Shown: positions 12,231 to 30,887, counted from the stretch's first letter. The stretch is DNA of 64,000 nucleotides from an uncultured Fibrobacter sp. (GCF_947166265.1 NZ_CAMVDO010000018.1:1093-65092), one strand, 5' to 3'. Program-made: numbers and translations. Notes: generated by a model from the sequence alone, not told the origin.

Positions 12231-12253
12231 ATATGACTCAACCTGAGACATAT
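12231..12253. promoter_or_regulatory. 23-bp palindrome, copy 1 (ATATGACTCA-ACC-TGAGACATAT)
   Basis: Inverted repeat 117 bp upstream of the ATG at 12114; 5 copies in the window. Confidence 0.75.
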
Positions 12254-12292
12254 AGGAGATTTTTGATAGGATGTCAACGTCGTCAACTATCC

Positions 12293-13717
12293 CTATGGCC
12301 GGTCAACGAACAGTTCGTCTAGGCAGACCGTAACGGGAATGGCCGAAGCGTATGAATTGTCCTTTAGCCCAAAGGTCGTTATAAGCGTCGGCATCACGGT
12401 TCGTCGTTTGGCAACCAGTTCCTTGAACATCCCGACCCTGTTCCTAACCTTCAAATCTTCCCCCTTTTGTAAGGAGTATTCGTGGTCGCAGTATTTGATT
12501 TCGCAAACATTGAACACCCTGTCGGCGCGTTCGATAATCAAATCGACCTGCACCCCGCTCCCATCTTCCTGATGCCGCCAGCAATAATATTCCGTCGCGA
12601 TTTTATCTATTCCAAGAGCAACCTTGACCTGTTCAATGTGTGAATAGCAAACCCGCTCAAAGGCAAGCCCCATCCAGTTATTTACGGGAGGCGTATTCAG
12701 GTGGTGGCTCCAGAAATGGGGGTCGGTCGTCCGGCCGACGAACTGGTTTTGAAACATCACGAAAAAATCCACCAGTTGGTAGATGCCGCCGTTTTTCTTT
12801 ATCTTGTCCCCCCGTGTCCGGTAATAACGCACGAAATCGCATTGAACCAGGTCGTCAAGAATTTTGCTCAAGTGCCCGTTATTCTGAACGCCCAACTCAT
12901 TTGCAATCTCTTCGCGGGTCAGTCCCGATTTCTTTTTGCAAAGGGCGTTTATAATGGAAACATGCCCTTCGGGATTTCTAAAGAGAGAACTGAAAAGGCG
13001 CTTGAATTCGTTCCGCAATTTAGCATCTGGCGAAAAAAACAGCCTATCAATGCCCTGCGCACAACTTTCGCGGGCTTGCAGTAAATCCAGATAGTAAGGG
13101 ATGCCGCCCAACGCCATGTAGATTTGCAAAATGGAAAGCCTGTCCCACAGGATTCCCTTGGCTTTGAGATATTTTTCCGTCTCGGACAAGGTGAACGGAC
13201 GGATGTGGAATTCATGCGTAATGCGATTGTGCAAGCCCCCATGCGAGTCGATAAGGTTCCTTATCATCCATGTCGTGGCGCTGCCGCAGACAATCAGCAA
13301 GACTTCGGGATGGACGGAACACCAGTTGTTCCAAAAATGCCCCAACGCTTTTATGAAGCCAGATTTGTGCGTGTCAAAACAAGGGAGTTCATCGATAAAG
13401 ATAATGCTGCGCTTTCCCTTTTTGAGTTTAAAATTCAAAAGTTCCTGAAGCCTAGAAAACGCATCAAGCCACGTGGATGGCATAGACCCCTGATAGCCGA
13501 TCTCGCGCAAGGCGAGCACAAAAGCGGCCATCTGCTCGTGCAAAGAACCTTCCAGAATTCCTGTCACCTTGAAAGAAAATTCATTGCCGTATTTTTGGTC
13601 TATCAGATACGTCTTGCCGACCCTACGTCGGCCGTACAGGGCGATGAACTCCGGCTTGCCAGACCCGTAGATATCGTTCAGTTCCTTGATTTCCTTGTTT
13701 CTACCAATGATATCCAT
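12293..13717 (-). CDS. AAA/P-loop ATPase with wHTH and C-terminal PD-(D/E)xK-like domain (archaeal-ATPase/DUF234-like)
   Basis: IIGRNKE, Walker A YGRRRVGKT, Walker B IFIDELP, C-terminal QVDLIIER...CEIKY; start may be 13717 or 13732. Confidence 0.85.
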   Translation of the reverse strand: MDIIGRNKEIKELNDIYGSGKPEFIALYGRRRVGKTYLIDQKYGNEFSFKVTGILEGSLHEQMAAFVLALREIGYQGSMPSTWLDAFSRLQELLNFKLKKGKRSIIFIDELPCFDTHKSGFIKALGHFWNNWCSVHPEVLLIVCGSATTWMIRNLIDSHGGLHNRITHEFHIRPFTLSETEKYLKAKGILWDRLSILQIYMALGGIPYYLDLLQARESCAQGIDRLFFSPDAKLRNEFKRLFSSLFRNPEGHVSIINALCKKKSGLTREEIANELGVQNNGHLSKILDDLVQCDFVRYYRTRGDKIKKNGGIYQLVDFFVMFQNQFVGRTTDPHFWSHHLNTPPVNNWMGLAFERVCYSHIEQVKVALGIDKIATEYYCWRHQEDGSGVQVDLIIERADRVFNVCEIKYCDHEYSLQKGEDLKVRNRVGMFKELVAKRRTVMPTLITTFGLKDNSYASAIPVTVCLDELFVDRP

Positions 13718-13739
13718 ACCGTTAAAATACATTATTACC

Positions 13740-13826
13740 GGGCTAAAGTCAACACAAAATCCAACTTTCAGCCCACAAATAGCACATTATCGGGCTAAAG
13801 TTCACAAAAACCAACAAGTTTAGCCC
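13740..13826. promoter_or_regulatory. Two tandem 35-bp imperfect palindromes (GGGCTAAAG...TTYAGCCC), 52-bp period
   Basis: 13740-13774 and 13792-13826, directly upstream of the ATPase. Confidence 0.6.
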
Positions 13827-13832
13827 ACTATT

Positions 13833-14034
13833 GGGCGTTCCCCGGCCCGGTCCCTGAGCCTGCCGAAGGGGGGCCGGGTCGGGTGCTGCTCGCCGAGCCC
13901 GCTCGGCTCATCGAGCCTTGCCGCTCTACAGGGCCCACGGCAAGTCTCGCCACCGCACGGCGGTGCGACGCCCTCCCCTAAAGGGGACCATAGCCACTAA
14001 GCAGTAAAACTGCAAGTGGCTGGAGGCCTAACGC
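13833..14034. repeat. Composite palindromic element, copy A (GGGCGTTCCCC...GGGTCGGG...CCTAACGC)
   Basis: Same ends as the elements at 53212-53347 and 58515-58662; contains a nested CCCTGAGCCTGCCGAAGGG hairpin. Confidence 0.65.
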
Positions 14035-14042
14035 GATTCTAG

Positions 14043-14077
14043 TGTGAAATGTGAAGTGTGGGGTGTGGAATGTGAAA
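14043..14077. repeat. Heptamer repeat TGTGRRR x5
   Basis: tgtgaaa tgtgaag tgtgggg tgtggaa tgtgaaa; 3 related units at 22317-22337. Confidence 0.8.
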
Positions 14078-14096
14078 TTGAAAATCCGCCGGCGGG

Positions 14097-15749
14097 TTAA
14101 TCGGAGTCCTTGATGCAGCGGACGGAGTAGGCGGCACTCGTGTTAAGCCTTTCCATGCCCATTCCATCGGATCCATAATACAAATACTCAGGATGGGTAA
14201 AACTCAAACCGTCAGTTGAACCCGCGGTAGTATGGAAATAAGCAAAATGTCCGGCAGCGGTGAAATTGCCGGAGCTGGTCCTGTAACCAGCAGGAATCCC
14301 TGAAAAACCGAAGGTGTCGGTGCCGATATATTCATTACTATAATATTCCCATCCTATCTGCGACTTGAGAGCCTTGCCTGCCGTTTTTTCGCCCGCTGCA
14401 ATATACAAGATATAGAATTCATCATCATCACCTGCATATCTAGGCAAGTGCCAGCCTGAAGGACAAATGCCCCGCACTTTTTTAGTAGGCACGCCATCAC
14501 CACAATTCACACCATTGCCATTATCACAGAGTGCAACGTAATCTATTGCCGCCGCCCAGGTGTAAAGGCGACCCGCCACGTCGCAGTTCTCGGTTTTATT
14601 GTCGTAGCACCAACTGCGTTCCAACAGACTCGGTGTCTTGACGCTGTCAGCGTAGTTCAGGTTCTCCGCCATCCATATCTGGTCACCTATCTGCACCGTC
14701 CTGTAAACCTTGCCGTCGCGTTCATCGGTCATGGAGCCGTAAGTAATATCCGGATTAAAGTAGGCTTCCTTTGGCACATCCCAGTTCCAACTCATTAGAG
14801 AGACCCAACCATTTGCCGTGCAATAATACTTGTTAGTTTCGGTCACAACGCCATTTGTTCTCGTCCCCACTTCTGCGTTGGTGCACGTTTTGCCATAAGT
14901 ATCCATGTCAATTTCCTTGGCCTTTTCCCACGAACCATTTTTACAGACAACATAGGACGAAGAATCCTTCTTTCCGATAAATCCTTCCCTACTCGCATTG
15001 CATTCTGGCAACGCCTTTACCGTATCTTTTACGCAACTCTTTACTTTGTTGTCGTTCCCGCCGCCGTTCTTGCAGGTGGACTTTGCAGCGTTGAAGGCGT
15101 ATTCCTGACTGATTTCATTGGTCATGTCGCTATAGACTTTCAGCGTGTCGATGTCTTCGACCCCCTTGTAATCGATCGTCTTGACCATAAGCTGCGTGCC
15201 TTCCACGAAATAGATGTATTCCATGTCCCTGTCAAAGCCATCCTTGCGCACAAAGTGCCATGTGCTGATGTCGGTCTTGACCATGGCGTCACAGACTCCC
15301 ACCTCGGTGCAGGTCTCGTTCACGGTGATTTCGGGTTCAAGGATTTCGGTCGGCCGCGAACTGCTGGACTTGGCGGAACTGCTCGACGTAGCCTCGCCCT
15401 TGTCGTCGTCCGAAGAACCTTCCTTGTCGGCAGCCTTGGAGTCGCTGGAGTCGTCGGACTTCTTGCTGCTCGATGACTCTGTCGAACTCGGCTTTGTCTG
15501 GTCGTAGGACTTGAACCACTTTTCGCCGTCGCATTCGTAGTTCTCTTCGAGTTCGGTCACATAGACCTTCTCGCCGATGACATCCATGCTGCACTCGTAT
15601 GTTTCGAGTTCCGCCTTGTCAGCCACTTCGGCGGGGAGTCCCTTTGCGCTCGGCGAAGACGACCCGTCGTCCCCGCAACCGATAAACGCAGAACCGAGCA
15701 TCCCCGCAAGGGCGCAGACAGTAAACTTTTTAGAGAATGGATTTTTCAT
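14097..15749 (-). CDS. FISUMP lipoprotein
   Basis: First 88 codons identical to the gene at 9937-12114; single C-terminal FISUMP domain ending SVRCIKDSD. Confidence 0.9.
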   Translation of the reverse strand: MKNPFSKKFTVCALAGMLGSAFIGCGDDGSSSPSAKGLPAEVADKAELETYECSMDVIGEKVYVTELEENYECDGEKWFKSYDQTKPSSTESSSSKKSDDSSDSKAADKEGSSDDDKGEATSSSSAKSSSSRPTEILEPEITVNETCTEVGVCDAMVKTDISTWHFVRKDGFDRDMEYIYFVEGTQLMVKTIDYKGVEDIDTLKVYSDMTNEISQEYAFNAAKSTCKNGGGNDNKVKSCVKDTVKALPECNASREGFIGKKDSSSYVVCKNGSWEKAKEIDMDTYGKTCTNAEVGTRTNGVVTETNKYYCTANGWVSLMSWNWDVPKEAYFNPDITYGSMTDERDGKVYRTVQIGDQIWMAENLNYADSVKTPSLLERSWCYDNKTENCDVAGRLYTWAAAIDYVALCDNGNGVNCGDGVPTKKVRGICPSGWHLPRYAGDDDEFYILYIAAGEKTAGKALKSQIGWEYYSNEYIGTDTFGFSGIPAGYRTSSGNFTAAGHFAYFHTTAGSTDGLSFTHPEYLYYGSDGMGMERLNTSAAYSVRCIKDSD

Positions 15750-15866
15750 AGCGAAACCCGTTGTTATCTTTTCCGCCCTAAAAATAATAAAGCACCCCCA
15801 TGCATTGCAAGCCTTCAATGCGCAGAAAAACGAACTTTTTATGCCGCGTCGGGCCGAAAAATTTCT

Positions 15867-15889
15867 ATATGTCTCACGCCGCGACATAT
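15867..15889. promoter_or_regulatory. 23-bp palindrome, copy 2 (ATATGTCTCA-CGC-CGCGACATAT)
   Basis: 118 bp upstream of the ATG at 15749, between divergent FISUMP genes. Confidence 0.7.
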
Positions 15890-16007: not shown

Positions 16008-17600
16008 ATGAGCGCTTTTTTCAGTATTTTGGCTATTCTGTCTGCGGCATTGCTCGCTGCCTGCGGTGGCGACGGCTCAACATCCCCTCAGCCAAGCGAA
16101 ACCGAGACCATCGAGCGTGATTCGAGTTCTTCGCAAAAACATGTTGGTTCATCTTCCAGTAATTTTGAGAATTCTGAAGCGGAAACGGGAAAACGGATTT
16201 CCAGTTCGTCCTACAGAAACGGAACGGCGCAGGAATCATCGAGTTCACGGCTTGTCGATCCCGACGGGCTACTGAATCCGAACATCTCGTACGGAGTGCT
16301 AGTGGATTCCCGTGACAATCAAACCTATAGAACCGTGAAGATTGGTCGCCTAACCTGGATGGCCCAGAACCTGAATTACGTATCTGAGCGCAGCATTCCG
16401 AGTGATTATGGAATAGGGCGACTTTACCAGTGGCCAGAGGCTCTTGGCCTGGACTCGACCCACATATCGGAAAGCTTTGAGTTTGACGCGCTAAAACTGA
16501 TTGCGCACGAAAACCATCGGGGAATTTGTCCCGAAGGATGGCACATCCCGACCGTTATCGAATATGTGCTTCTCGTAAAAGCCGTAGAAGCCGAAGTCGG
16601 CAAGGAACATGTCGGATCGGCGCTCAAGTCAAGTGCCGTGGGTGCATGGCCCGAAGAACCCGACGAAGACAAGCCGACAAACGTCTCGGGCTTTTCGGCG
16701 GCATACGCAGGGTGGGCAAACGAGAATGACAGGTACGTGAAATATGGAGAAGACACGTGGCTGGGCGGCCCGACGACAGAAACGATATTTTGGGCAACCG
16801 TTCCCAATGGCGGTTCTGGCGGATATGGTTTTCATCTTGACAAGACCGGAATGGTCTCTGATCAGATGAGCTCGTATTATAGAAGCGGAAAGGCTTCAGT
16901 CCGTTGCGTACAGGACCGCGACTTTGACGAAGGAAAAAGTGCGGGGCCGCAGCAAGGGAGCGTGTATGACAGTCTGGAGAACACGTTGACGGACCTGCGC
17001 GACAATCGTGTTTACAGGACGACGGTAATCGGTTCGCAGGTATGGATGGCGGAGAACCTGAAGTATGTGACAACGGGCGGTTATGCAGATGACATGGAGC
17101 AGAGCCGTTGCTTTAATGACGATCCACAGTACTGCGAGGACTTTGGAAGGCTTTACCGATGGACGGCAGCCATGGACATTCCCTCCTCTTACGCGGAAAA
17201 GGTTTTCGATGATACGCTGATGCACCAGGGACTTTGCCCGCAAGGGTGGCACGTTCCTAGCAATACCGATTTCGACACGCTGATTGTGAACGCGGGGGGA
17301 TTTAAGACGGCTGCGCTGAATCTCAAGTCGGCGGACTATTGGTTTGAAGGTGGGAAGCCAAGGCCGGGCACCTTGAAATATTCATTTGACGCCCTTCCCA
17401 TCATGACGTATTATGAACGGCAACCATACGCAAGCAAGATAGGGCCTTTGAGCGCCTTTTGGTCTTCCTGGAACGACAACTTGAATGGAGGCAGCCTGGG
17501 CTTTGTCTATGACAAAGACGGCATTGCGGATTTTCGCAGTACCGAAAAATACTGGTTTATTCCGCTCCGTTGCCTGAGGGACGAACGGGTTCCCGAGTAG
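16008..17600 (+). CDS. FISUMP lipoprotein, two FISUMP domains
   Basis: Lipobox LLAAC; Ser-rich linker; two D.RD...Y.T..IG..WMA.NL.Y...CP.GWH.P...RC units. Confidence 0.9.
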   Translation: MSAFFSILAILSAALLAACGGDGSTSPQPSETETIERDSSSSQKHVGSSSSNFENSEAETGKRISSSSYRNGTAQESSSSRLVDPDGLLNPNISYGVLVDSRDNQTYRTVKIGRLTWMAQNLNYVSERSIPSDYGIGRLYQWPEALGLDSTHISESFEFDALKLIAHENHRGICPEGWHIPTVIEYVLLVKAVEAEVGKEHVGSALKSSAVGAWPEEPDEDKPTNVSGFSAAYAGWANENDRYVKYGEDTWLGGPTTETIFWATVPNGGSGGYGFHLDKTGMVSDQMSSYYRSGKASVRCVQDRDFDEGKSAGPQQGSVYDSLENTLTDLRDNRVYRTTVIGSQVWMAENLKYVTTGGYADDMEQSRCFNDDPQYCEDFGRLYRWTAAMDIPSSYAEKVFDDTLMHQGLCPQGWHVPSNTDFDTLIVNAGGFKTAALNLKSADYWFEGGKPRPGTLKYSFDALPIMTYYERQPYASKIGPLSAFWSSWNDNLNGGSLGFVYDKDGIADFRSTEKYWFIPLRCLRDERVPE

Positions 17601-17712: not shown

Positions 17713-18339
17713 TTACTTCTTCTGGAGCGGGGTATCCTTCAGGATTTCTTCGACCAGGTTCTTCATGTTTTCTTCCCAGTCGCCCTTGCCCATGGCAAAT
17801 CCGAGGTGGACGCGGGCCTTGAGGGTACCGCTTGCGACGACAGTCTTGCTGTCGGCATTGGCAATGGAGTATTCACCGGTGAACTGGAGGTAGCTCTTGG
17901 TTTCGGCGCTCATGGTGAGCGGGTTCATCTTGGTTTCGGAGAGGCGGGAAACTTCGAGGTTGCTCATGGAGATGATGAGGCCGGAAACACCTTCGTCGAA
18001 CTTCGGAGAAGGAACGAGGTAGTCCTTCTTGCCGAACTTGGCCGGGGTCATGGTGTAGTCGGTCACTTCCTTGGCGGTGAAGTTGGCGGCGATGTCAGCC
18101 TGGCTCTTCAGTTCGCTGCCCATCTGCTGAGTGAACCAACCGGAGAAGTTGCTGGAGTAGTCCGGGAGGTCGTCGGCGACGTCGTCCTGGTTCTTCACGA
18201 CAGGTTCGGTGTAGAAGACGGTTACTGCAGTTGCTGGTTCAGTCCAAGTCGGGTCGATATTCTTGAGACCGGCCTTGCCACCGCAACCGATGAGGGTAAG
18301 GGATGCTGCGCAGAGGAGAAACGCGGCGAGTTTTTTCAT
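17713..18339 (-). CDS. Hypothetical lipoprotein
   Basis: 208 aa, lipobox TLIGC, strong host codon bias, AGGAGG RBS. Confidence 0.8.
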   Translation of the reverse strand: MKKLAAFLLCAASLTLIGCGGKAGLKNIDPTWTEPATAVTVFYTEPVVKNQDDVADDLPDYSSNFSGWFTQQMGSELKSQADIAANFTAKEVTDYTMTPAKFGKKDYLVPSPKFDEGVSGLIISMSNLEVSRLSETKMNPLTMSAETKSYLQFTGEYSIANADSKTVVASGTLKARVHLGFAMGKGDWEENMKNLVEEILKDTPLQKK

Positions 18340-18479
18340 GATGTTGTCCTCCTAAAGGAGAGGTTCTAGAAAACGACATTGTTTTCTTGGCGAAACAAGA
18401 TAGGAAAAATTTGTTCGAAAAAGAGATTTTTTTCCTGAAAAAAAATTTTTTTTCGACCCATTCAGCCGTAGAATTTTCT

Positions 18480-18502
18480 ATATGTCACACGTTGCGACAT
18501 AT
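18480..18502. promoter_or_regulatory. 23-bp palindrome, copy 3 (ATATGTCACA-CGT-TGCGACATAT)
   Basis: Between the divergent lipoprotein and RhuM genes. Confidence 0.7.
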
Positions 18503-18657
18503 GGAGAAAAAAACGTGTTTAAAAGCTTCACCCAGTCCAAAGTTCCTGCTTTCGCTGACTTACCAAAATCGATATCTGTTCTGGGATGTAGTTTGATTGA
18601 CAACAATCCCCTTTTTACATATATTTATAGTGAACAAATGTGTAATTAAGGTGGTTT

Positions 18658-20046
18658 ATGCCGAACGAAAACGAGATTTTGCCGCTACAGTCCGATTTTG
18701 AGCAAATCAAAAGGACCGACGCCGACGGGCGCATTTTCTGGAGCGCGAGGGAACTATCTTCCGCTATGGGCTATAGCACCTACCAGAAATTCTGCCGTAT
18801 TTTGGATAAATCAATGGCGTCGGCACAGGCGAAAGGCCTGAATTTGGCAGACCATTTTAACCGAGTGGTTGAAATGGTCAAGCTCGGATCAGGGGCATTC
18901 CGCGAGGTTGAAAATGTCCATCTTTCACGCGAAGCATGTCTTTTAGTCGCTGAAAATGCCGACCGCAAAAAGCCTCAAGTGCAAATAGCCCTTACATATT
19001 TTTCTCAAGGCGAAAAAGCCCTTCCAACCGTCGCAAGCGCCGATTTTTCAAGCATTCTGCTGTACAAGACGGCCCAAGGGGAATCTCGCATCGAGGTTAT
19101 TTTCAACAGCGACACGTTCTGGATGCCTCAAAAGCGTATGGCGGAATTGTACGGGGTGGAAGTCAACACGATAAACTACCATCTCAAGGAAATTTATGCT
19201 AGCGGAGAGCTCACGGAATCGGCAACTATTCGAAAAATTGGAATAGTTCAAAACGAAGGTGAACGAGAGGTAACCCGCCCGCAAATGCTGTATAATCTCG
19301 ACGCCATTATCGCCGTCGGCTACCGAGTGAACAGTTACCAGGCGACCCAGTTCCGCATCTGGGCGACTACGGTACTGAAAGAAATGATTGTAAAGGGGTT
19401 CGTGCTGGACGACGAGCGCCTCAAGCAGGGGACGCACTTTGGCAAGGACTACTTCGACGACTTGCTAGAACGGATTCGGGAAATCCGCGCGTCAGAACGC
19501 AGGTACTACCAGAAAATCACCGACATCTATGCGGAATGCAGCACCGACTACGACCCCAAAGCCGAAACGACGCAGCAGTTCTTCAAGATTGTCCAAAACA
19601 TGATGCACTGGGCGGTCACGCACCAGACCGCAGCCGAAATCATCTACTCCAGGGCCGATGCAGAAAGTCCGCACATGGGTTTAACTACGTGGAAAAAGGC
19701 GCCCGACGGTCGCGTGCAAAGGTCCGATACGGTTATCGCGAAGAACTATCTTTCCGACAAGGAAGTCTCTGCGCTGAACCGAATTTCGACCGCATTCCTA
19801 GACCTAGCCGAAAGCCAGGCAGAACGCCACATCATCATGAGCATGAACGATTGGCGACAGCAACTTGAGGAATTCCTCGGGCTCTACAAGTACGACATTC
19901 TCCAGAACGCCGGAACCGTATCCGCAGAAGACGCAAAGCAAAAAGCCTTTGCGGAATATGACAAGTTCAAACTTGTTCAGGACCGCGAATTTCTTTCTGA
20001 TTTCGACAAAGTGGTCAAGAAACTTGAAATAGAAAAATCTCGATAA
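18658..20046 (+). CDS. RhuM-family protein with N-terminal DinD/Bro-N-like domain
   Basis: N-terminal FEQIKR..WSARELS..MGYS.YQKF...HFNRVVEMVKLGSGAFRE (DinD-like); C-terminal YNLDAIIAVGYRVNS..ATQFRIWAT..LKE..KGF.LDDERLK (RhuM). Confidence 0.8.
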   Translation: MPNENEILPLQSDFEQIKRTDADGRIFWSARELSSAMGYSTYQKFCRILDKSMASAQAKGLNLADHFNRVVEMVKLGSGAFREVENVHLSREACLLVAENADRKKPQVQIALTYFSQGEKALPTVASADFSSILLYKTAQGESRIEVIFNSDTFWMPQKRMAELYGVEVNTINYHLKEIYASGELTESATIRKIGIVQNEGEREVTRPQMLYNLDAIIAVGYRVNSYQATQFRIWATTVLKEMIVKGFVLDDERLKQGTHFGKDYFDDLLERIREIRASERRYYQKITDIYAECSTDYDPKAETTQQFFKIVQNMMHWAVTHQTAAEIIYSRADAESPHMGLTTWKKAPDGRVQRSDTVIAKNYLSDKEVSALNRISTAFLDLAESQAERHIIMSMNDWRQQLEEFLGLYKYDILQNAGTVSAEDAKQKAFAEYDKFKLVQDREFLSDFDKVVKKLEIEKSR

Positions 20047-20087: not shown

Positions 20088-21083
20088 TTACTCAGAGTCC
20101 TTCACACAACGGACGGAGTAGCCCATGTCTTTACTACTGTCATTCAATGTCGCATTATCGTGACGATAGTAGAATAATGACATTTGATATGCCCAGTTAT
20201 CATTTCTGACTGTAGAGCTCCAAAAGTGCGCATACTCGGATTCCTCACCATAATATCCATTATAGAAATAAGTGGAGATATCCCTTTTGCCCGCAGGAAG
20301 CGCTGAAAAAGAATAGGAATCATCCCCATTCCCGTTAAAAGTCCAATCCGTAGTAGACTTGAGCATTCTTCCAGCCTTATTGTCAGAGGTATATTCCGTA
20401 ATGGAGTCATCCACGGCTACAATCAAGTTTTCCCATTCTGACTTGCTGGGTAAATGCCATCCCTTTGGACAGGCTCCACGAACAAAGTCTGCACCAAGAT
20501 CACATTTGTGTCCGTATCCGCATTCTTCCAAGGTCTTTCCGACCGCAGCACTCCACAGGTACAAGCGGCCATATTTATCACAATTTTCGAATTTATCTCT
20601 ATAACAAAAACTGTTCTCTGTCCTATAATTTAAATTCTCCGCCATCCACACTTCCGAATAATTCGTTCCGACAGGGGCAATCGTGGTTGTCTTGTAGTTT
20701 CGACCATCGCGTAGGTCGGTCAATATGTTAGCAGACGCGTCGTAGATACTGCCATCGCTGCTGGAAGATGCTGTTTCGGCCATATCGGAACTTGATGAAG
20801 ATTTTGGCTCCCCACTCGATGAAGAACTTTTTGCACTCTTCGGAGTGACAGAAGAACTTGATTTTTCATTGCCGCTAGATTGAGCATCATTGGATGCCTC
20901 GCGACTGTCGCTGGACCCGTCGGTCACTTCGGCTGGCTCAGTGACCTTGGCACTGCTGCTCAGGGCACTTGTTTCGCCGTCATCACCACCCGCCGATGAA
21001 GAGTCATCGCAAGCGGAAAGGGCGAACCCGAGCACCCCCGCAAGGGCACAGACCGTAAACATTTTCGCGAATGTATTTTTCAT
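20088..21083 (-). CDS. FISUMP lipoprotein
   Basis: MKNTFAK leader, lipobox ALSAC, Ser-rich linker, FISUMP domain ending SVRCVKDSE. Confidence 0.9.
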   Translation of the reverse strand: MKNTFAKMFTVCALAGVLGFALSACDDSSSAGGDDGETSALSSSAKVTEPAEVTDGSSDSREASNDAQSSGNEKSSSSVTPKSAKSSSSSGEPKSSSSSDMAETASSSSDGSIYDASANILTDLRDGRNYKTTTIAPVGTNYSEVWMAENLNYRTENSFCYRDKFENCDKYGRLYLWSAAVGKTLEECGYGHKCDLGADFVRGACPKGWHLPSKSEWENLIVAVDDSITEYTSDNKAGRMLKSTTDWTFNGNGDDSYSFSALPAGKRDISTYFYNGYYGEESEYAHFWSSTVRNDNWAYQMSLFYYRHDNATLNDSSKDMGYSVRCVKDSE

Positions 21084-21101: not shown

Positions 21102-22271
21102 TTATTCAGAATCCTTGACGCAACGGACGGAGTACCCTTCTCTCTTGTTGTTCGCTCCGTAGCCCACGCCGAGGCCTTCGAGAGCCCAGTTGACGCCTTG
21201 GCACATCGCTTCGCCGCTACCGAAATTAGTGGCCGTCCACAAAGAGGCGTTGAAGCCCTCATCGTAGAAATAGCCATTGTGGTATCTGAAACCGGCGGAG
21301 AGCTCAGAGAACCCGTACTTGTCGGTTCCGTTGCCACCACTGTACCATCCGCTGGTGGATTTCAACAACAGGCCGCCAGTGTTGGAACCACCGATGTAGG
21401 TGTGCAGGGTGCTGAACTCCTGTTCCGTCGGTACATGCCAGCCCTCTGGGCAAATGCCACGGTGTGGACTGTTTGGGTTACATCTCGAACCAAGGGAGCC
21501 TTCCGTGAGATTGGAATAGCCGCACGTGGTTCTTGCATTTTCGATGAACTGGGCTGCACTATCCATCACGGCACTCCAAGTGTAAAGTCGACCGTACTTG
21601 TCGCAGTTGGAAACCTTGTTCTCGTAGCACCAGCTGGTGGAATCAGAGGTATTTTCTTTTGATCTGAACTTCACACCAGTGTAAGCATAATTCAAGTTCT
21701 GGGCCATCCATATCTGATCTCCGATTTTAACCGTCTTATAGACTTGTCCATCGCGTTCATCGGTAAACTCGCCATAATTAATGTCCGGATTCAAGTAATC
21801 CCAGGCGGTTTTGCTAGACCCCTCGACATCGCTCGGGGTGACACTCGAAGAACTAGAGTTGCTGGACTTGGTCGATGTTCCTGCCGAAGAAGGATTGCCC
21901 TTGCTGTCGCTGGAGTCGTCGGTCACTTCGGCGGGATCGTTGGACTTGCTATCGCTCGACTTGTCACTCGATGAAGAGAAATCGCAGTCCATCTTCTCAA
22001 TGAGAGTCCCGATGACCCAGCCATTGTTACCATCGCACACAGCCATGTCATGGTATTCCGTCAGGTAGGTGGCGACACACTTCTGACTCTTGCCGCAGTC
22101 GTAGTCCGACAGTTCCATGAAAGTCTCGATGGTGTCAGGAATTCCACCACGAGTGCTGCCGCTACCGCCCTCACCACCCGCCGACGACGACAAATCGTCA
22201 CAAGCGGAAAGGGCGAAGAATGCCGCGAGCACCGCCACCCACAAGAAACCAAGACCCTTGACACACTTCAT
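21102..22271 (-). CDS. FISUMP lipoprotein
   Basis: Start moved to MKCVKG; lipobox ALSAC; GGIPDT..DCGKSQKC module; FISUMP domain. Confidence 0.9.
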   Translation of the reverse strand: MKCVKGLGFLWVAVLAAFFALSACDDLSSSAGGEGGSGSTRGGIPDTIETFMELSDYDCGKSQKCVATYLTEYHDMAVCDGNNGWVIGTLIEKMDCDFSSSSDKSSDSKSNDPAEVTDDSSDSKGNPSSAGTSTKSSNSSSSSVTPSDVEGSSKTAWDYLNPDINYGEFTDERDGQVYKTVKIGDQIWMAQNLNYAYTGVKFRSKENTSDSTSWCYENKVSNCDKYGRLYTWSAVMDSAAQFIENARTTCGYSNLTEGSLGSRCNPNSPHRGICPEGWHVPTEQEFSTLHTYIGGSNTGGLLLKSTSGWYSGGNGTDKYGFSELSAGFRYHNGYFYDEGFNASLWTATNFGSGEAMCQGVNWALEGLGVGYGANNKREGYSVRCVKDSE

Positions 22272-22355
22272 ACCATTATCTCCTGTAAAAATTTTCACCA
22301 CCCACAAACCAAGCAATGTGAAATATGGAATGTGGAATGATTGTTTATCGGCGGG

Positions 22356-23483
22356 TTAGTCAGAGTCCTTAACGCAACGGACAGAAAAGCCCATGTACAT
22401 GTAATTGCCTGCTTCGTCCCAGCCCACAACGTTATTGGGGTACAAGCGCACGCCATACACAGTATCATCGAACATGACAGAACTCCAGAAGCACGCCGTC
22501 TTGCCAACACTCACGAAGGAGCCTCTGCCATAAAGACCTGCCGGCAACGCGGAAAAACCGAAGTCATCATCACCGTTACCGTCGCTAAGCCACCCGCTCC
22601 GGGACTTAAACTTATTCCCTACCGCCGTGGAACCATCGCTCACCGCCGTGAACAGAGTATCCCATTCGCTTTTTTGCGGCAAGTGCCAGCCGCTAGGACA
22701 AATTCCTTTGACAATACCATTCAGGGCAGAACACATACTGCCATAACCACAATCTTGCGGATTGACCGCATCGGTCGCGAGTTTCACCGAGTCGATGGCC
22801 GCCGCCCAAGTATATAGACGGCCGTACTTGGCACAGTTGGCAGGGTCGTTGTCGTAGCACCAGCTAGTAGAATCGGAGATGTAAACATTATTGTAATAGG
22901 AAAAGTTATAGGGAACATCGATGTAGGCATAATTCAGGTTCTGTGCCATCCAAACCTGATCTCCGATTTTAACCGTCTTATAGACTTGTCCATCACGTTC
23001 ATCGGTAAACTCTCCATAATCGATGTCCGGATTCAAGTAATCCCAGGCGGTTTTCATTTCTTCGCTAGACGAAGACACCTCCTTGCCCGCAGAGCTGCTT
23101 GACTTTACGTCATTTCCAGATGTATTCGAATTGCTGGACTTGGTCGATGTTCCTGCCGAAGAAGGATTGCCCTTGCTGTCGCTGGAGTCGTCGGTCACTT
23201 CGGCGGGATCGTTGGACTTGCTATCGCTGGACTTGGCGTCGCTATCCTTATCAGTGACCTTGCCGCTGCTGGAGATTGCTTCGTCCTTATCGTTGGAACG
23301 AGAATCACTGGATTCTTCGCGGCTATCGCCGCTCAGAATGACGTTATTGTCATCGTCACCCGCCGACGAAGAATCGTCACAGGCGGAAAGGGCAAAGATT
23401 GCCGCCAACAAGAAGATGATTAGAGATTGCTTCCCCTGAAACAAGTTCAGGGTCGCAATGACACGCTGGAAAGACTTCTTCAT
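22356..23483 (-). CDS. FISUMP lipoprotein
   Basis: Lipobox ALSAC; Ser/Asp-rich linker; FISUMP domain ending SVRCVKDSD. Confidence 0.9.
   Translation of the reverse strand: MKKSFQRVIATLNLFQGKQSLIIFLLAAIFALSACDDSSSAGDDDNNVILSGDSREESSDSRSNDKDEAISSSGKVTDKDSDAKSSDSKSNDPAEVTDDSSDSKGNPSSAGTSTKSSNSNTSGNDVKSSSSAGKEVSSSSEEMKTAWDYLNPDIDYGEFTDERDGQVYKTVKIGDQVWMAQNLNYAYIDVPYNFSYYNNVYISDSTSWCYDNDPANCAKYGRLYTWAAAIDSVKLATDAVNPQDCGYGSMCSALNGIVKGICPSGWHLPQKSEWDTLFTAVSDGSTAVGNKFKSRSGWLSDGNGDDDFGFSALPAGLYGRGSFVSVGKTACFWSSVMFDDTVYGVRLYPNNVVGWDEAGNYMYMGFSVRCVKDSD
23424..23462. repeat. REP-like element inside signal-peptide coding sequence
   Basis: AGATTGCTTC-CCCTGAAACAAGTTCAGGG-TCGCAATGAC; both 10-bp ends are identical to those of the intergenic element at 60497-60532. 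Confidence 0.75.
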
Positions 23484-23637
23484 AAGAACATCCCCGTCTA
23501 TAGTTTATCTTGTTAAATATAGGTAATGCCCCTGCCAAAGTCCATACCCCCCCCATTGTAAATTTTAAGAAACAAGATAAAGGTTCAGAATAACGCAGAA
23601 AAACAACTTTTTCAAGGTTTTCTATCAGAAATTTTCT

Positions 23638-23660
23638 ATATGACTCAAGTTGAGACATAT
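23638..23660. promoter_or_regulatory. 23-bp palindrome, copy 4 (ATATGACTCA-AGT-TGAGACATAT)
   Basis: Symmetry extends to TCT/AGA on the flanks; between the ATPase stop and the FISUMP start. Confidence 0.75.
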
Positions 23661-23689: not shown

Positions 23690-25120
23690 TTATGGTAGAT
23701 TTGGCGAATTATACAAGACGTCCAAAGTAATTGATTTTGGAATCTGCCTGGCGCAGGAATTGGGTTTTAGACCGAGCGATGTCACGAAGGTAAGCATCGG
23801 TGACTTGCGGGTCTTAGAGGATTCCTTGAACAGCTTGACTTTTTCAAGGAGTTCCGTCAAGTAATGCTGCGTGACTTCGTAGGGGCTGGTCGAAAACTTC
23901 ATTTCACAGATGTTGATGACGTTGTCGATGCGGTCGATCAGAAGGTCGAATTGTGCGCCGTCTTTCCCCGTATATATCCAGCTACAAGGGGCACTTTCTA
24001 TTCCAGAGATTCCGAGTGCGTTCAGGATTTGCGGATAATGCTGAAGGCACAGCATTTCGAATGCGTAGCCGCACCAACTGTTGTATTCAGGCTTACCCTG
24101 GATTTGCAGCCATTGGTTGCGGCGACCCTTCGCCCGTTTCGCGAGGAACTTGAAATAGAAAAGCGTGTAGAAATCGACGAGTTGAATCAGTTCGTCTTTG
24201 GTCTTCTTGCCAAAGGGACTATAACGCCTAATGAATCCGCAATTTTCAAGATCGTCCAAGGCCTTGGACACGCCCCCGCTACTTTCGACTGAAAGTTCCT
24301 TGATTAACGTGTTCCTGGTTATCCCCTTTTTCTTTTGAGCAAGAACTTCTACGATGGCAATGTATTTTTCGGAATTGCGGAACAACGCGTGATACAAGTT
24401 GTGAAATTCGTTGCGGAGTTCGCCATCTTCGCCGAACAAAAGTCTGTCCACATTCTGTGCAAGGCTTTCGCCTTTGTCCAGGAGTTTCAAGTAATACGGA
24501 ATCCCCCCAAAAACCATGTAGAACTGTGCGATTTCAAAACGGTCCATGGTGAAATTTTTTGCCTTCAAAAATTCTTCGCATTCGCCAAGGGTGAACGGAG
24601 AAAGTTTTATCTGGTGCGTTACGCGGTTATGCAGACCACCCTTGTTGTTGATGAGCTTGTTCATCATCCACGACGTGGCAGAACCACAGACAATCAACTT
24701 TATGGTCGGGTCATCGGAGGCCCACGAATTCCAGAAATGTTCCAGGGCGCTTACAAAGTCAGACCGTGCGGTATCAAACCACGGCAATTCATCGATGAAA
24801 ATGATTTTCTTGGTTTTATGCAATTTCGATAGTTCGTCGCGCAAGAGATTGAACGCGTCAAACCAATTTTTGACGGTTGCCTTCTTTGAAAAATATTGCG
24901 AAAAGGCATCCGTAAAATTCTGCAATTGCTTTTTGAGATCGGAATTGGCCAACCCCGTCATGTAAAAAGAAAAGTTTTTTTGGAAAAGGCTCTTCACGAG
25001 ATAAGTCTTGCCGACTCGCCTACGACCATAGACAGCGACAAATTCAGCTTCGTCACTATCGATGAACCTGTTCAACAGGGATATTTCGCGTTTTCTGCCA
25101 ACAATCAGTTTTTCGGACAT
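23690..25120 (-). CDS. AAA/P-loop ATPase with wHTH and C-terminal PD-(D/E)xK-like domain, paralog of 12293-13717
   Basis: IVGRKRE, YGRRRVGKT, IFIDELPW, AQFDLLIDR...ICEMKF. Confidence 0.85.
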   Translation of the reverse strand: MSEKLIVGRKREISLLNRFIDSDEAEFVAVYGRRRVGKTYLVKSLFQKNFSFYMTGLANSDLKKQLQNFTDAFSQYFSKKATVKNWFDAFNLLRDELSKLHKTKKIIFIDELPWFDTARSDFVSALEHFWNSWASDDPTIKLIVCGSATSWMMNKLINNKGGLHNRVTHQIKLSPFTLGECEEFLKAKNFTMDRFEIAQFYMVFGGIPYYLKLLDKGESLAQNVDRLLFGEDGELRNEFHNLYHALFRNSEKYIAIVEVLAQKKKGITRNTLIKELSVESSGGVSKALDDLENCGFIRRYSPFGKKTKDELIQLVDFYTLFYFKFLAKRAKGRRNQWLQIQGKPEYNSWCGYAFEMLCLQHYPQILNALGISGIESAPCSWIYTGKDGAQFDLLIDRIDNVINICEMKFSTSPYEVTQHYLTELLEKVKLFKESSKTRKSPMLTFVTSLGLKPNSCARQIPKSITLDVLYNSPNLP

Positions 25121-25279: not shown

Positions 25280-26542
25280 TTAGTCTGAGTCCTTGACGCA
25301 ACGGACGGAGAAGCCGTTTTTCTTCCACTCGCCCCACAAAAGGGCGGAATCGTCGTCGTGTTGCAATCTCAAACAGTAGGATTTGTCGCTACCGTACACA
25401 CTAGAAGACCAGAAGAACGTACCAACGCCCTTTGACCTAAAAAATTCTCCGATGTACATAAAGCCTGCAGGGAGGGCTGAGAAACCAGAGGCATTCGTTC
25501 CCGACGTAGAAGTCGAATATTCCTTCCACCCGTCCGCAGTCTTCAACTCTACACTAGCACCAAGGTAACTCCAGTAAGTAGTTAGGTCTTCAACGCCGCT
25601 CGCTATTGGTTCTACCAGTTTCTTCCACTCTTCCTTTGTAGGCAAATGCCAGCCTTTGGGACAAACGCCCTGCGTACCTTCGTTGCCAATGTCGCAATTG
25701 TAGTGATAGCCACAATTGACCTTATTCATTGCAACTTCCCAGGTGTACAGGCGACCGTACCTGGAGCAGTTCGCAGCAAACTCTTCTTCCGTCAAAATTC
25801 TTTTACTGATTTCATCAAGGGCACCGTCACCATAGCAGCCGCTCCATGCATACCTACCCAAGCTGGACACATCGCCCGGATCGTAATTCAAGTTCTGGGC
25901 CATCCATATCTGATCTCCGATTTTAACCGTCTTATAGACTTGTCCATCGCGTTCATCGGTAAACTCGCCATAATTAATGTCCGGATTCAAGTAATCCCAG
26001 GCGGTTTTCATTTCTTCGCTAGACGAAGACACCTCCTTGCCCGCAGAGCTGCTTGACTTTACGTCATTTCCAGATGTATTCGAATTGCTGGACTTGGTCG
26101 ATGTTCCTGCCGAAGAAGGATTGTCCTTGCTGTCGCTGGAGTCGTCGGTCACTTCGGCGGGATCGTTGGACTTGCTGTCGCTGGACTTGTCGGTCACTTC
26201 GGCGGGATCGTTGGACTTGCTATCGCTGGACTTGGCACTCGATGAAGAGAAATCGCAGTCCATCTTCTCGATGAGAGTCCCGATGACCCAGCCGTTGTTA
26301 CCATCACACACAGCCATGTCATGGTATTCCGTCAGATAGGTGGCAACGCACTTCTGACTCTTGCCGCAGTCGTAATCCGACAGTTCCATGAATGTCTCGA
26401 CGGTGTCGGGAATTCCACCACGGTTCCCGCCACTACCATTATCACCCCCCGCTGACGAAGAATCGTCGCAGGCGGAAAGGGCGAAACCGAGCACCCCCGC
26501 AAGGGCGCAGACCGTAAACTTTTTCGCGAATGTGTTTTTCAT
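25280..26542 (-). CDS. FISUMP lipoprotein
   Basis: MKNTFAK leader, GGIPDT module, 15-aa internal duplication, FISUMP domain. Confidence 0.9.
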   Translation of the reverse strand: MKNTFAKKFTVCALAGVLGFALSACDDSSSAGGDNGSGGNRGGIPDTVETFMELSDYDCGKSQKCVATYLTEYHDMAVCDGNNGWVIGTLIEKMDCDFSSSSAKSSDSKSNDPAEVTDKSSDSKSNDPAEVTDDSSDSKDNPSSAGTSTKSSNSNTSGNDVKSSSSAGKEVSSSSEEMKTAWDYLNPDINYGEFTDERDGQVYKTVKIGDQIWMAQNLNYDPGDVSSLGRYAWSGCYGDGALDEISKRILTEEEFAANCSRYGRLYTWEVAMNKVNCGYHYNCDIGNEGTQGVCPKGWHLPTKEEWKKLVEPIASGVEDLTTYWSYLGASVELKTADGWKEYSTSTSGTNASGFSALPAGFMYIGEFFRSKGVGTFFWSSSVYGSDKSYCLRLQHDDDSALLWGEWKKNGFSVRCVKDSD

Positions 26543-26560: not shown

Positions 26561-27721
26561 TTAGTCAGAATCCTTGAGACAACGGACGCTCACTGCAATG
26601 ACCTTACTGCGATTAACCATGAGTGCACTCGGACGTCCATAATACATATCCACGCCATATACATAATAGCCATCAATTTCGGAAGAACTCCAAAAGTCTG
26701 TATAATCGCCAGCATTGACAAAACCATCGGTTGGTCTCGAGCCCACAGGCAACGCCGCAAAACCGTATGCGTCCGTACCGTTACGATTATTAGTCCATCC
26801 CGTCTGAGATTTGAGAGCCTTACCCGCATCATCTGTTTCGCCAACTTCATCAATCAAAACATTCCATTCGGTTGTATCAGGCAGATGCCACCCCATCGGA
26901 CATAAGCCCTGAACTTTTGAAGGTAGAGAGCAGGTCTTTTTTCTGCCACAGTCCACTCCATTGCCGCTGTCGTAAAGTGCGATTGAGTCAATCGCCGCGG
27001 CCCAGGTGTAAAGCCGACCGCCATACGCACATTTTTCTTCATTGTATTCATAGCACCAATTACGTTCCAACAAACTAGGCGTTTTAATACTGTCGGCATA
27101 GTTCAAATTCTGTGCCATCCATATCTGCTCGCCAATCTGAGCAGTCTTATAAACCTGACCATCGCGTTCATCGAGAATTTCGCCATACTTACCCGTTTCA
27201 AGGAATTCCTGGTTCAGGTATTCTGTCGTAACACACTTATACTTCGTGCAATCGTATGTTCCAGACGGCATGACCTTTGCTTCGGCGTAACTTTTCGGAA
27301 CCTCGCCTTTACTAAACGAAGACTCGACCTTGCTCGCAGAACTGTTGCTTGACTTTGTGCCATTTCCAGACGAATTGGAGTTGCTTGACTTGGTCGATGT
27401 TCCTGCCGAAGAAGGGCTATCCTTGCTGTCGCTGGAGTTGACACTCGATGAAGAGAAGTCGCAGTCCATCTTCTCGATGAGAGTCCCGATGACCCAGCCG
27501 TTGTTACCATCGCACACAGCCATGTCATGGTATTCCGTCAGGTAGGTGGCAACGCACTTCTGACTCTTGCCGCAGTCATAGTCCGACAGTTCCATGAATG
27601 TCTCGACGGTGTCAGGAATTCCACCACGGTTTCCGCCACTACCATTATCACCACTTGCCGACGACGAGTCATCACAGGCGGAAAGGACGAAGAATGCCAA
27701 CAGTAAAATAAATTTTTTCAT
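26561..27721 (-). CDS. FISUMP lipoprotein
   Basis: Start MKKFI (or MGVF at 27733); lipobox VLSAC; GGIPDT module; YDCTKYKCVTTE module; FISUMP domain. Confidence 0.9.
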   Translation of the reverse strand: MKKFILLLAFFVLSACDDSSSASGDNGSGGNRGGIPDTVETFMELSDYDCGKSQKCVATYLTEYHDMAVCDGNNGWVIGTLIEKMDCDFSSSSVNSSDSKDSPSSAGTSTKSSNSNSSGNGTKSSNSSASKVESSFSKGEVPKSYAEAKVMPSGTYDCTKYKCVTTEYLNQEFLETGKYGEILDERDGQVYKTAQIGEQIWMAQNLNYADSIKTPSLLERNWCYEYNEEKCAYGGRLYTWAAAIDSIALYDSGNGVDCGRKKTCSLPSKVQGLCPMGWHLPDTTEWNVLIDEVGETDDAGKALKSQTGWTNNRNGTDAYGFAALPVGSRPTDGFVNAGDYTDFWSSSEIDGYYVYGVDMYYGRPSALMVNRSKVIAVSVRCLKDSD

Positions 27722-27753
27722 AAAAACACCCATTACAAAATTTTACCCCTTAG

Positions 27754-29580: not shown

Positions 29581-29598
29581 AGGGAAATCTTTTGAAAT

Positions 29599-30747
29599 TT
29601 AGTCAGAGTCCTTGACGCAACGGACGGAGAAGCCGTTGTATCCTTCAAATTCGTACAAGTACGCCCTACTATCGCTCCAGTATAGCATCGCGCTGTAAAC
29701 AAGATTGACATTCCACTTGGTAGAACTCCAAAAGCCAGTCTTGGAGCCGACTTTGTCGAAAGTTCCATAGATATTTTGTCCAGCAGGCAACGCTGAAAAT
29801 CCATAGGCATCACTACGGTTGCCATTGGCACCAAACCAGCCATTCTGCGACTTTAGCTTTGTTCCAGCCGTAGATTTTCCGCCAACCGCATTAAACAAAG
29901 CATTCCATTCAGAACTATCAGGCAAATGCCAACCGCTTGGGCAAATACCTTGAACAGGCAAGGTCGGCGAGCATATCGCACCATGTCCACAGCCAGTTTT
30001 TATGGAATCCATAGCCGCACTCCATTTATAGAAACGCCCAGTCACCTCGCAGTTAGCCGTCACATTGTCGTAGCACCGACTTTTGCCAAGAAGACTCGGA
30101 GTCGCTATACTGTCAGCATAGTTCAGATTCTGAGCCATCCAAACCTGTTCGCCAATCTTTACAGTCTTATAGACCTGACCATCGCGTTCATCAATTATCG
30201 AATCATACTGAATTTCAGGATTGAGATAGGCTTCTTTCGGAACACTCCAATCAAAGTTCCCCGAACTCGATGAAGGAATGATGACACTCGATGAGGATTC
30301 TTCCTTGCTCATGGAACTGCTACTTCGCTTTTCACTTGAAGATGATTTCACCGATGAACTAGACTTATCCTTGTTGCTGCTGGATGAGTCATCGGACTTT
30401 ACAGAACTGGAACTCTTAGAGTCGGACGAGTTCCTTGTTTCTTTCGCGGAACTGCTGGAGTTATCGGTCACTTCGGCTGGTTCGACGGACTTGCTGTCGC
30501 TGGACTTGGCGTCGCTATCCTTATCAGTGACCTTGGCACTGCTGGAGATTGCTTCGTCCTTATCGTTGGAACGAGAATCACTGGATTCTTCGCGGCTATC
30601 GCCGCTCAGAATGACGTTATTGTCATCGTCACCCGCCGATGAAGAGTCGTCGCAAGCGGAAAGGGCGAAGAACGCCGCGAATATAAAGACGGTTAAGAGT
30701 CGGCCCTTCGGCAAGCTCAGGGGCCTTGTAGCAATGACATTTTTCAT
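29599..30747 (-). CDS. FISUMP lipoprotein
   Basis: Start MKNVIA (or MDVF at 30759); lipobox ALSAC; long Ser-rich linker; FISUMP domain. Confidence 0.9.
   Translation of the reverse strand: MKNVIATRPLSLPKGRLLTVFIFAAFFALSACDDSSSAGDDDNNVILSGDSREESSDSRSNDKDEAISSSAKVTDKDSDAKSSDSKSVEPAEVTDNSSSSAKETRNSSDSKSSSSVKSDDSSSSNKDKSSSSVKSSSSEKRSSSSMSKEESSSSVIIPSSSSGNFDWSVPKEAYLNPEIQYDSIIDERDGQVYKTVKIGEQVWMAQNLNYADSIATPSLLGKSRCYDNVTANCEVTGRFYKWSAAMDSIKTGCGHGAICSPTLPVQGICPSGWHLPDSSEWNALFNAVGGKSTAGTKLKSQNGWFGANGNRSDAYGFSALPAGQNIYGTFDKVGSKTGFWSSTKWNVNLVYSAMLYWSDSRAYLYEFEGYNGFSVRCVKDSD
30702..30725. repeat. REP-like hairpin inside signal-peptide coding sequence
   Basis: GGCCCTTCGGCAAGCTCAGGGGCC; matches intergenic CCCTGAGCCTGCCGAAGGG (about 13852) and CACTTCGGCAAGCTCAGTG (57721). 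Confidence 0.7.
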
Positions 30748-30864
30748 AAAAACATCCATTATGATAATTTACCTCCTAAAAATAACAAAGCACCCCCGTG
30801 CATCGCAAGCCTTCAATGCGCAGAAAAACGAACTTTTTATGCCGCGTCGGGCCGAAAAATTTCT

Positions 30865-30887
30865 ATATGTCTCACGTTGCGACATAT
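30865..30887. promoter_or_regulatory. 23-bp palindrome, copy 5 (ATATGTCTCA-CGT-TGCGACATAT)
   Basis: 118 bp upstream of the ATG at 30747; divergent to the TIGR02147 gene. Confidence 0.75.

Follow-up and report, generated by a model that had tools for sequence, protein, structure and literature searches.

A palindrome conserved ahead of Fibrobacter lipoprotein genes is a candidate operator for a TIGR02147/DUF4423 protein

Background

Why should the same 23-bp palindrome stand ahead of five separate groups of lipoprotein genes? The question is raised by a 64,000-nucleotide stretch of DNA (hereafter the window) from an uncultured Fibrobacter sp. (GCF_947166265.1 NZ_CAMVDO010000018.1:1093-65092). 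A first-pass annotation of its sequence described five copies of the palindrome ATATGWCWCA-N3-YGMGACATAT and suggested that it is either bound by a dimeric regulator, the obvious candidate being the TIGR02147 protein encoded beside the fifth copy, or a symmetric recombination site marking the ends of gene cassettes. From comparisons of the window with other genomes we propose that the palindrome, together with a short tail, is probably a cis-regulatory operator bound by the TIGR02147/DUF4423 protein encoded at 30993–31811.

Fibrobacter is a key degrader of cellulose in the rumen, and most of the genes behind the palindrome belong to the FISUMP lipoproteins, for which a role analogous to that of cohesins has also been suggested. 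FISUMP lipoproteins (TIGR02145) constitute the largest paralogous family in Fibrobacter, with 17–119 copies per genome, and contain abundant, putatively extracytoplasmic and possibly cellulose-binding domains (PMC4704652). A full-text literature search returned no paper on the role of TIGR02147/DUF4423, a family of unknown function. We likewise know of no work on the regulation of FISUMP genes.

Five copies of a palindrome with an asymmetric tail

Exact matching of the pattern found five copies in the 64 kb, at 12231–12253, 15867–15889, 18480–18502, 23638–23660 and 30865–30887, just where they had been described, and none in dinucleotide-preserving shuffles of the window. A scan of all 64 kb with up to three mismatches allowed added no site to the five, in keeping with the earlier statement that none lies outside 12–31 kb. 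On the gene-sense (minus) strand the positions invariant among the copies read C-N-ATATGTC-N-C-N4-TG-N-G-N-CATAT and then AGAAA-N-TT, and the conserved unit is a palindrome of 10-3-10 architecture plus an asymmetric AGAAAxTT tail on the side of the gene. The five units are as follows.

12222–12253, minus strand: copy 1 and tail; palindrome 12231–12253, in gene sense ATATGTCTCA GGT TGAGTCATAT; tail AGAAAATTT at 12222–12230
15858–15889, minus strand: copy 2 and tail; palindrome 15867–15889, ATATGTCGCG GCG TGAGACATAT
18471–18502, minus strand: copy 3 and tail; palindrome 18480–18502, ATATGTCGCA ACG TGTGACATAT
23629–23660, minus strand: copy 4 and tail; palindrome 23638–23660, ATATGTCTCA ACT TGAGTCATAT
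30856–30887, minus strand: copy 5 and tail; palindrome 30865–30887, ATATGTCGCA ACG TGAGACATAT

All five stand at the head of a minus-strand lipoprotein transcription unit. Copy 1 starts 39 nt past the stop codon of an ATPase gene (12293–13732) and lies 116 nt from the ATG of the FISUMP gene 9937–12114. Copy 2 is midway between divergent FISUMP genes, 117 nt from 14097–15749 on the minus strand and 118 nt from 16008–17600 on the plus strand, and copy 3 is 140 nt from the ATG of a gene for a 208-aa lipoprotein (17713–18339). Copy 4, which starts 29 nt past the stop codon of a second ATPase gene (23690–25120), lies 154 nt from the ATG of 22356–23483, the first gene of a three-gene FISUMP unit that continues with 21102–22316 and 20088–21083. 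Copy 5 heads a four-gene FISUMP unit (29599–30759 down to 25280–26542), with the first ATG of 29599–30759 at 105 nt and the second at 117 nt, and is midway between this unit and the divergent TIGR02147 gene 30993–31811 (ATG at 105 nt). The distances of 117, 118, 141, 155 and 118 bp given in the first-pass annotation are thus correct to within 1 nt, and the TTGCGA hexamer that it placed 55 nt after copy 1 is present at 12175–12170. Its description of the region as a lipoprotein array holds for all five downstream genes, with the qualification that one of them, 17713–18339, is not a FISUMP gene.

Distribution across genomes

The pattern ATATGNCNCNNNNNGNGNCATATAGAAA was scanned against one genome per bacterial or archaeal species (185,579 species genomes, 596 Gb) and was found at 31 loci, 28 of which come from 14 Fibrobacter/Fibrobacterales assemblies. 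The other three (in Patescibacteria, Methanolobus and Treponema) match the approximately four chance occurrences that we calculate for 19 specified bases in 596 Gb. The 31 Fibrobacter sites in the scanned loci and the five in the window make 36 distinct sites, every one of which is intergenic and has its tail aimed at a lipoprotein gene, with an overall spacing of 105–154 nt. Approximately 22 of the 36 aim at FISUMP genes, whose ATG is 105–117 nt off. Eight aim at orthologues of the 208-aa lipoprotein gene, with the ATG 138–142 nt off in the seven that could be measured (the eighth, L011, is truncated where its locus stops and was assigned by its shared flank); the targets of the remaining sites are cut by contig ends or ambiguous. 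Twelve of the 36 lie midway between a FISUMP gene and a divergent TIGR02147 orthologue (79–94% identity), with the ATG of the latter 101–107 nt off. The positionally fixed over-representation in defined promoters that characterizes an operator is therefore present at 5/5 sites in the window and at 31/31 Fibrobacter/Fibrobacterales sites elsewhere (loci L001–L031 without the three chance loci).

Strict copies number 1–5 per assembly, and the site therefore has the distribution of a small regulon and not of a dispersed repeat. Repetitive extragenic palindromic (REP) sequences and bacterial interspersed mosaic elements (BIMEs) are scattered in tens to hundreds of copies, for the most part in 3' regions. 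A repeat of this type was rejected on the low number of strict copies, all of them upstream of lipoprotein genes, and on the failure of relaxed matching in the window to add any.

The 208-aa lipoprotein itself has no Pfam or NCBIfam match. It is 92–96% identical across at least seven Fibrobacter species, always with the palindrome ~140 nt upstream, and is the most conserved member of the putative regulon.

Covariation of half-sites with TIGR02147 subfamilies

The proposal of a dimeric-regulator site, with the divergently transcribed TIGR02147 gene encoding the regulator, is supported computationally by a motif that is confined to Fibrobacter lipoprotein promoters and lies at a fixed distance from a TIGR02147 gene in one third of cases. 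Additional support comes from orthologues of 75–76% identity that keep the site, from other subfamilies that keep its 10-3-10 architecture, and from an N-terminal domain modelled as a helix-turn-helix (HTH). Upstream of a regulator with 75% identity (locus L122) the site reads ATATGTCTCA-TGG-TGAGACATAT at 106 nt from the ATG, and upstream of one with 76% identity (L120, which has an additional site upstream of a small open reading frame, ORF) it reads ATATGTTACA-CTG-TGTGACATAC at 105 nt; in both the flanks are unrelated to those in the window. More distantly, a palindrome of the form xxATG-NNN-CA-NNN-TG-NNN-CATxx is present in 34 of 84 upstream regions of TIGR02147 homologues (42–59% identity, from metagenomes and genomes), compared to 4.1 on average and at most 10 in shuffles, and 16 of the 34 are exactly 111–112 nt from the ATG. 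Its variable part differs by subfamily (GATACA, GAAACA, GCAACA or AGTACA, compared to GTCTCA here), usually with a symmetric change in both arms.

The half-site ATG[ACT][AT]ACA was counted 104 times within 300 nt upstream and a single time within 300 nt of coding sequence, and the 7-mer of the cognate half-site recurs in one orientation just upstream of the -35 element, 48–52 nt from the ATG, in 16 of 29 loci; non-cognate half-sites occupy this -35-proximal position in 3.2% of comparisons. The predicted recognition helix reads GYA[N/S][T/P][R/K]F where the half-site is GTCTCA, and GF[S/T]S[P/S]SY or a similar sequence where it is of the xxACA type. By these comparisons the site covaries with its putative cognate regulator. 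Since the half-sites are subfamily-specific their reader must be subfamily-specific too, and the sole such DNA-binding candidate at these loci is TIGR02147.

The site might instead serve as operator for another DNA-binding protein. This could be a global regulator, or one of the PF01637 ATPases, which have a winged-helix-like region at the C-terminus and whose genes stand directly upstream of copies 1 and 4. An ATPase gene ends 29–113 nt before copies 1 and 4 and before sites L001b and L022, divergent AAA ATPase genes accompany other sites, and the ATPases have weak HTH_11 and TFIIE_alpha matches; moreover, a TIGR02147 gene adjoins just 12 of the 36 sites. However, ATPases at different sites are ~23% identical to one another and the motif is invariant, the half-site type follows the TIGR02147 subfamily at a fixed ATG distance and is met again at the -35 element of that same gene, and a global factor would not have subfamily-specific sites. 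We therefore consider another protein unlikely.

A phylogenetic footprint is also apparent in the sequence comparisons: the arms show 0% divergence compared to 8.3% at four-fold degenerate sites, and in a diverged subfamily 6% compared to 27%, and the L120 and L122 sites sit in unrelated flanks. What is conserved could in principle be a nucleic-acid hairpin, such as an RNA stem-loop in a long 5' leader or a terminator of the upstream ATPase genes. The 10-bp stems with 3-nt loops have folding energies of -4.7 to -7.2 kcal/mol (DNA parameters; z-scores -1.8 to -4.8), arms are conserved around a variable loop and shift together between subfamilies, and copies 1 and 4 do come after ATPase stop codons. 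Yet mismatches (T:T in class A, G:A in class B) are retained uncompensated, and hybrid sites such as GAAACA/GCAACA lose self-complementarity with each half still within the allowed set, from which it follows that sequence and not pairing is conserved. Isolated cognate half-sites beside the -35 element are likewise not expected of a hairpin, and the promoters predicted on either side would both begin transcription beyond the site, which is therefore probably untranscribed. A covariance-model scan of the whole window against Rfam gave no match at gathering score. A terminator scan did not call the palindromes, whose A+T-rich stem is followed by AGAAAATTT with no T-run; with 3/5 copies (2, 3 and 5) also lacking a co-oriented upstream gene to terminate, an intrinsic terminator was rejected. 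Overall a hairpin function seems very unlikely.

The TIGR02147/DUF4423 protein and its operon

The proposed regulator is encoded by the first gene of a pair.

30993–31811, plus strand: TIGR02147/DUF4423 gene, 272 aa, proposed cognate regulator; its only Pfam match is DUF4423, residues 108–266
31808–33604, plus strand: FISUMP lipoprotein gene, with a 4-nt overlap at the TIGR02147 stop codon

An overlapping FISUMP gene typically follows TIGR02147 genes, and the pair is a conserved two-gene operon. In the full AlphaFold2 model (mean predicted local distance difference test score, pLDDT, 79.5) a six-helix N-terminal domain is followed by a winged-helix-like middle domain (helix-helix-helix-hairpin) and two long C-terminal helices. 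The N-terminal domain alone (residues 1–105) is modelled with a pLDDT of 95.2 and a predicted template modelling (TM) score of 0.87 as an XRE/lambda-cI-like fold, with the predicted HTH at approximately residues 28–55, SWRGFNKMAGYANTRFLKLVCDGKSKLS. Foldseek comparison of this domain with the PDB returned almost exclusively XRE-type structures (1lmb, 1rio, HigA, C.Csp231I) at probabilities of 0.95–0.99, TM scores of ~0.5–0.6 and weak E-values (0.2–1), and the whole protein retrieved the same families at lower probability, again with weak E-values. Sub-threshold Pfam matches among 36 family members included HTH_3, CYNS_N, Aca2, TrmB and HTH_45. The modelled fold is consistent with DNA binding and not decisive alone, and membership of the XRE family is not established at the sequence level.

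Upstream of TIGR02147 genes across the family (L037–L039 and L046–L115, read 50–20 nt before the ATG) the putative promoter consists of the cognate half-site, ~8 nt, a TTGACA-like hexamer, 17 nt and TATATTTA, ending 10–19 nt before the ATG. The -35-adjacent half-site is a feature of most other subfamilies and not of this one. In the window the predicted promoter is TTGCAA-17-TAAATTTG (30955–30990), ending ~10 nt before the ATG. As these promoters, with either TATATTTA or TAAATTTG, end 10–19 nt before the ATG, the mRNAs would be nearly leaderless. The -10 element resembles the TAnnTTTG element of Bacteroidetes.

Proposed mechanism

We propose that a TIGR02147 dimer binds the palindrome with one N-terminal XRE-type HTH per ATATGTCTCA half-site, leaving the 3-nt centre uncontacted. 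The palindrome centre would lie ~100 bp upstream of predicted start points on both sides, and at copies 2 and 5 the operator would be midway between two divergent promoters. One protein would thereby govern the TIGR02147-FISUMP operon that encodes it, as well as four further lipoprotein transcription units. Its regulon would take in nine FISUMP genes behind the sites, another that is divergent at copy 2, and the 208-aa lipoprotein gene. An outer, imperfect symmetry (AGAAxxTCTCCT, then ATATG...CATAT, then AGAAAATTTCT) may be read by the winged-helix-like domain, which is speculation.

On the lipoprotein side an A5-6/T5-7 tract lies ~26–46 nt past the palindrome, followed by a poor -35 element and a TG-extended TATTTT ~80 nt past it. 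The tract is present after all five copies, and the type of core promoter varies among them. The parts can be read most readily after copy 1.

12170–12206, minus strand: putative copy 1 promoter parts; A6-N4-T5 tract at ~12206–12191, TTGCGA at 12175–12170 and, 18 nt on, TG-n-TATTTT

Binding could activate transcription from an upstream site, aided by the intervening A/T tract, or could repress it by looping. We modestly favour activation over repression, since the site appears too distant to block RNA polymerase and the target promoters have a poor -35 and an extended -10 element; the sign of regulation is inferred, as are binding itself, dimer stoichiometry and promoter positions. A sigma-54 enhancer was also considered. 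Inspection by eye downstream of the sites found no -24/-12 element (GG-N10-GC) with correct spacing, and TIGR02147 has no AAA+ domain, so this was rejected. Half-sites outside the palindromes number only 2 in the 64 kb compared to ~5.7 expected by chance, and none is near the five promoters.

Several further observations weigh against a TIGR02147 operator. The promoters and start points are guessed from sequence, and simple XRE-type repressors do not usually have a site ~100 bp away from the start point. The Foldseek E-values are weak, no HTH profile reached its curated threshold (HTH_3 matched 1/36 members, at E = 6.8e-4 and below the cut-off), and a sequence-profile search of the PDB found no HTH relative. 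The pairing of helix and half-site is essentially a single independent contrast, the promoter-proximal half-site was not found in this subfamily, and co-inheritance of the locus could mimic covariation, though it would not preserve two-fold symmetry. Two FISUMP-domain genes in the window but outside the array (53380–57363 and 59681–60361) have no copy of the motif, which marks only a subset of the family; the site is therefore not the controller of FISUMP genes as a whole. Lastly, a plain operator model does not account for the hypervariable centre, discussed below.

Portable modules bounded by the palindrome

When the five upstream regions are compared in all ten pairs, similarity begins 1–16 nt before the palindrome, much as the first-pass annotation had noted for particular pairs. 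Copies 1 and 2 share 92% identity over -10 to +473, and copies 2 and 5 share 89% over -16 to +149. Between copy 3 and all others, and between copy 4 and copies 2 and 5, likeness is limited to approximately -5 to +31, that is, to the palindrome and tail (32–37 nt), and copy 3 is an island of conservation within an unrelated promoter. The longer promoter stretches common to copies 1/2/5 and 1/4 might suggest that the palindrome is a functionless piece of a recently duplicated promoter. The 32–37-nt islands contradict this, as do the retention of the site among unrelated flanks at 75–76% regulator identity and the divergence of arms (0–6%) compared to four-fold sites (8–27%), and we regard such a lack of function as extremely improbable.

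FISUMP genes have 5' cassettes in common. The genes after copies 1 and 2 (11758–12240 and 15394–15875) have the promoter and ~120 codons in common and are divergent beyond, and those after copies 4 and 5 have an internal stretch of ~240 nt at 91% identity (23180–23420 and 30454–30694).

We read the palindrome as the upstream limit of a portable promoter-plus-gene unit, as its suggested role of module boundary had implied. A stronger form of the idea is that it is a symmetric recombination site, cut by a recombinase that shuffles or inverts lipoprotein cassettes in the manner of a shufflon or of inverton-like antigenic variation. The palindrome does join left flanks of several types (TIGR02147 side, ATPase 3' ends and others) to right-flank promoter types in free combination, and interspecies synteny ends 0–10 nt from it in many loci (for example at 18502 in three, and at 18506/18507 in two more). 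But no integrase, invertase or transposase was found among the 48 ORFs scanned against Pfam and NCBIfam, which include all ORFs of the array of at least 200 aa. Conservative recombinases depend on a crossover core, 2 or 6–8 nt long, that is identical between sites, and the 3-nt centres here differ (GGT, GCG, ACG, ACT and ACG). Furthermore, left and right arm variants co-segregate, and the breakpoints do not fall at the motif centre as had been envisaged: homology boundaries are at -1 to -16, outside the palindrome, and synteny ends at its distal edge. Homologous recombination between conserved operator modules of 35–100 bp accounts for the mosaics without a dedicated enzyme. The recombination-site alternative is thus not supported, and we think it improbable.

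A hypervariable centre

In two independent sets of near-identical orthologous regions, 56–57% of pairwise positions differ in the central triplet, compared to 5–8% at four-fold sites, ~4% in the flanks and 0% in the arms (window centres 12241–12243, 15877–15879, 18490–18492, 23648–23650 and 30875–30877; loci L005–L031). The centre thus varies 7–10 times more than four-fold synonymous sites, often with several bases replaced at once. This is change faster than neutral, which a simple operator model would not lead one to expect. Candidate causes are hairpin-templated switching, or the exchange of short tracts between paralogous copies whose arms are identical. A recombinase acting at the palindrome could also be argued from such rapid replacement and from centre alleles that are reverse complements of each other (ACT/AGT and GAT/ATC). 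However, these are two pairs among 9 alleles, where 0.57 is expected, which is near chance, and the idea of a flipping loop, suggestive as it is, was left without statistical support. The resemblance of the arms to type IIS sites (GTCTC/GAGAC, GAGTC facing the centre) was set aside as numerology.

It is conceivable that TIGR02147/DUF4423 proteins and their sites are a large set of orthogonal regulator-operator pairs, with one half-site 'code' per TIGR02147 paralogue, that choose which subset of 50–120 FISUMP surface lipoproteins is expressed, and that the operator is at the same time a hotspot for shuffling cassettes, at which copies would exchange short tracts or undergo hairpin-templated switching, with the result that centres are rewritten and promoter-gene cassettes relocated. 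We regard this combined proposal as doubtful.

Neighbouring genes and other palindromes

The genes 12293–13732 and 23690–25120 encode paralogous PF01637 (archaeal-type) ATPases with weak C-terminal HTH matches, and in other species ATPase genes of several kinds adjoin the motif. Divergent from copy 3 is 18658–20046, the gene for a 462-aa protein in which a DinD-like N-terminal region is fused to a RhuM virulence-family domain; it is 98.9% identical in another Fibrobacter species (L019).

The 10-3-10 site was not seen at the distant paralogues L033 and L032 (57–59% identity), and the gene of the regulator P0010 is not preceded by a separate intergenic region. At L032, 2800–2930, upstream of a TIGR02147 paralogue with 59% identity, are five tandem units of ~21 bp, each with a 20-bp palindrome (ATGATAACAC followed by GTGTTTACAT), which may be a different operator layout of that subfamily. 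At L034 a perfect 22-bp palindrome (2862–2883, CTATATTTATG followed by CATAAATATAG) lies 118 bp upstream of a paralogue with 52% identity, and has the outer CTATAT...ATATAG in common with the motif of the window.

Significance and comparison with known systems

If TIGR02147 does bind the palindrome, the TIGR02147/DUF4423 family would gain its first functional clue, as sequence-specific transcription regulators, and FISUMP lipoproteins their first regulatory handle. A small set of Fibrobacter surface-lipoprotein genes would be switched together, through a defined operator and a small, testable regulon, and the pairing of half-site with recognition helix would be open to simple binding assays.

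Among known systems, the nearest parallel is perhaps offered by the lambda cI/XRE regulators, including HigA and the C-proteins of restriction-modification systems. The modelled N-terminal domain has its Foldseek matches, with weak E-values, among their small helical HTH domains. Common to both are a two-fold-symmetric operator with an unconstrained centre and a regulator gene beside its own site, suggesting autoregulation; the extra site of sister subfamilies abuts the -35 element, as OR2 does for PRM. Unlike them, the window protein lacks sequence-level membership (HTH_3 below threshold in 1/36), and at 272 aa has a second, winged-helix-like domain and the DUF4423 region. Its proposed 23-bp operator (10-3-10) carries an asymmetric tail and lies ~100 bp upstream of both predicted promoters instead of over them.

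The arrangement of the locus resembles that of divergent autoregulators of the LysR or TetR style, with regulator and target transcribed divergently from ~235 bp around one central palindrome and the same site at a few other promoters making up a small regulon. TIGR02147 differs from these in fold and family, in being co-transcribed with a gene of the target type (the TIGR02147-FISUMP operon), and in its orthogonal paralogues, of which a genome has many, every one with a half-site to itself. Invertase and shufflon sites (hix, Bacteroides Mpi-type inverted repeats), which serve surface-protein variation, are similar in being short imperfect palindromes that head surface-lipoprotein cassettes, with mosaic flanks joined there. 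Here, in contrast, no recombinase gene was found among the ORFs scanned in the window, the odd 3-nt centre is non-identical among copies, the breakpoints are at the outer edge, and the site is upstream of the promoter, not between promoter and gene.

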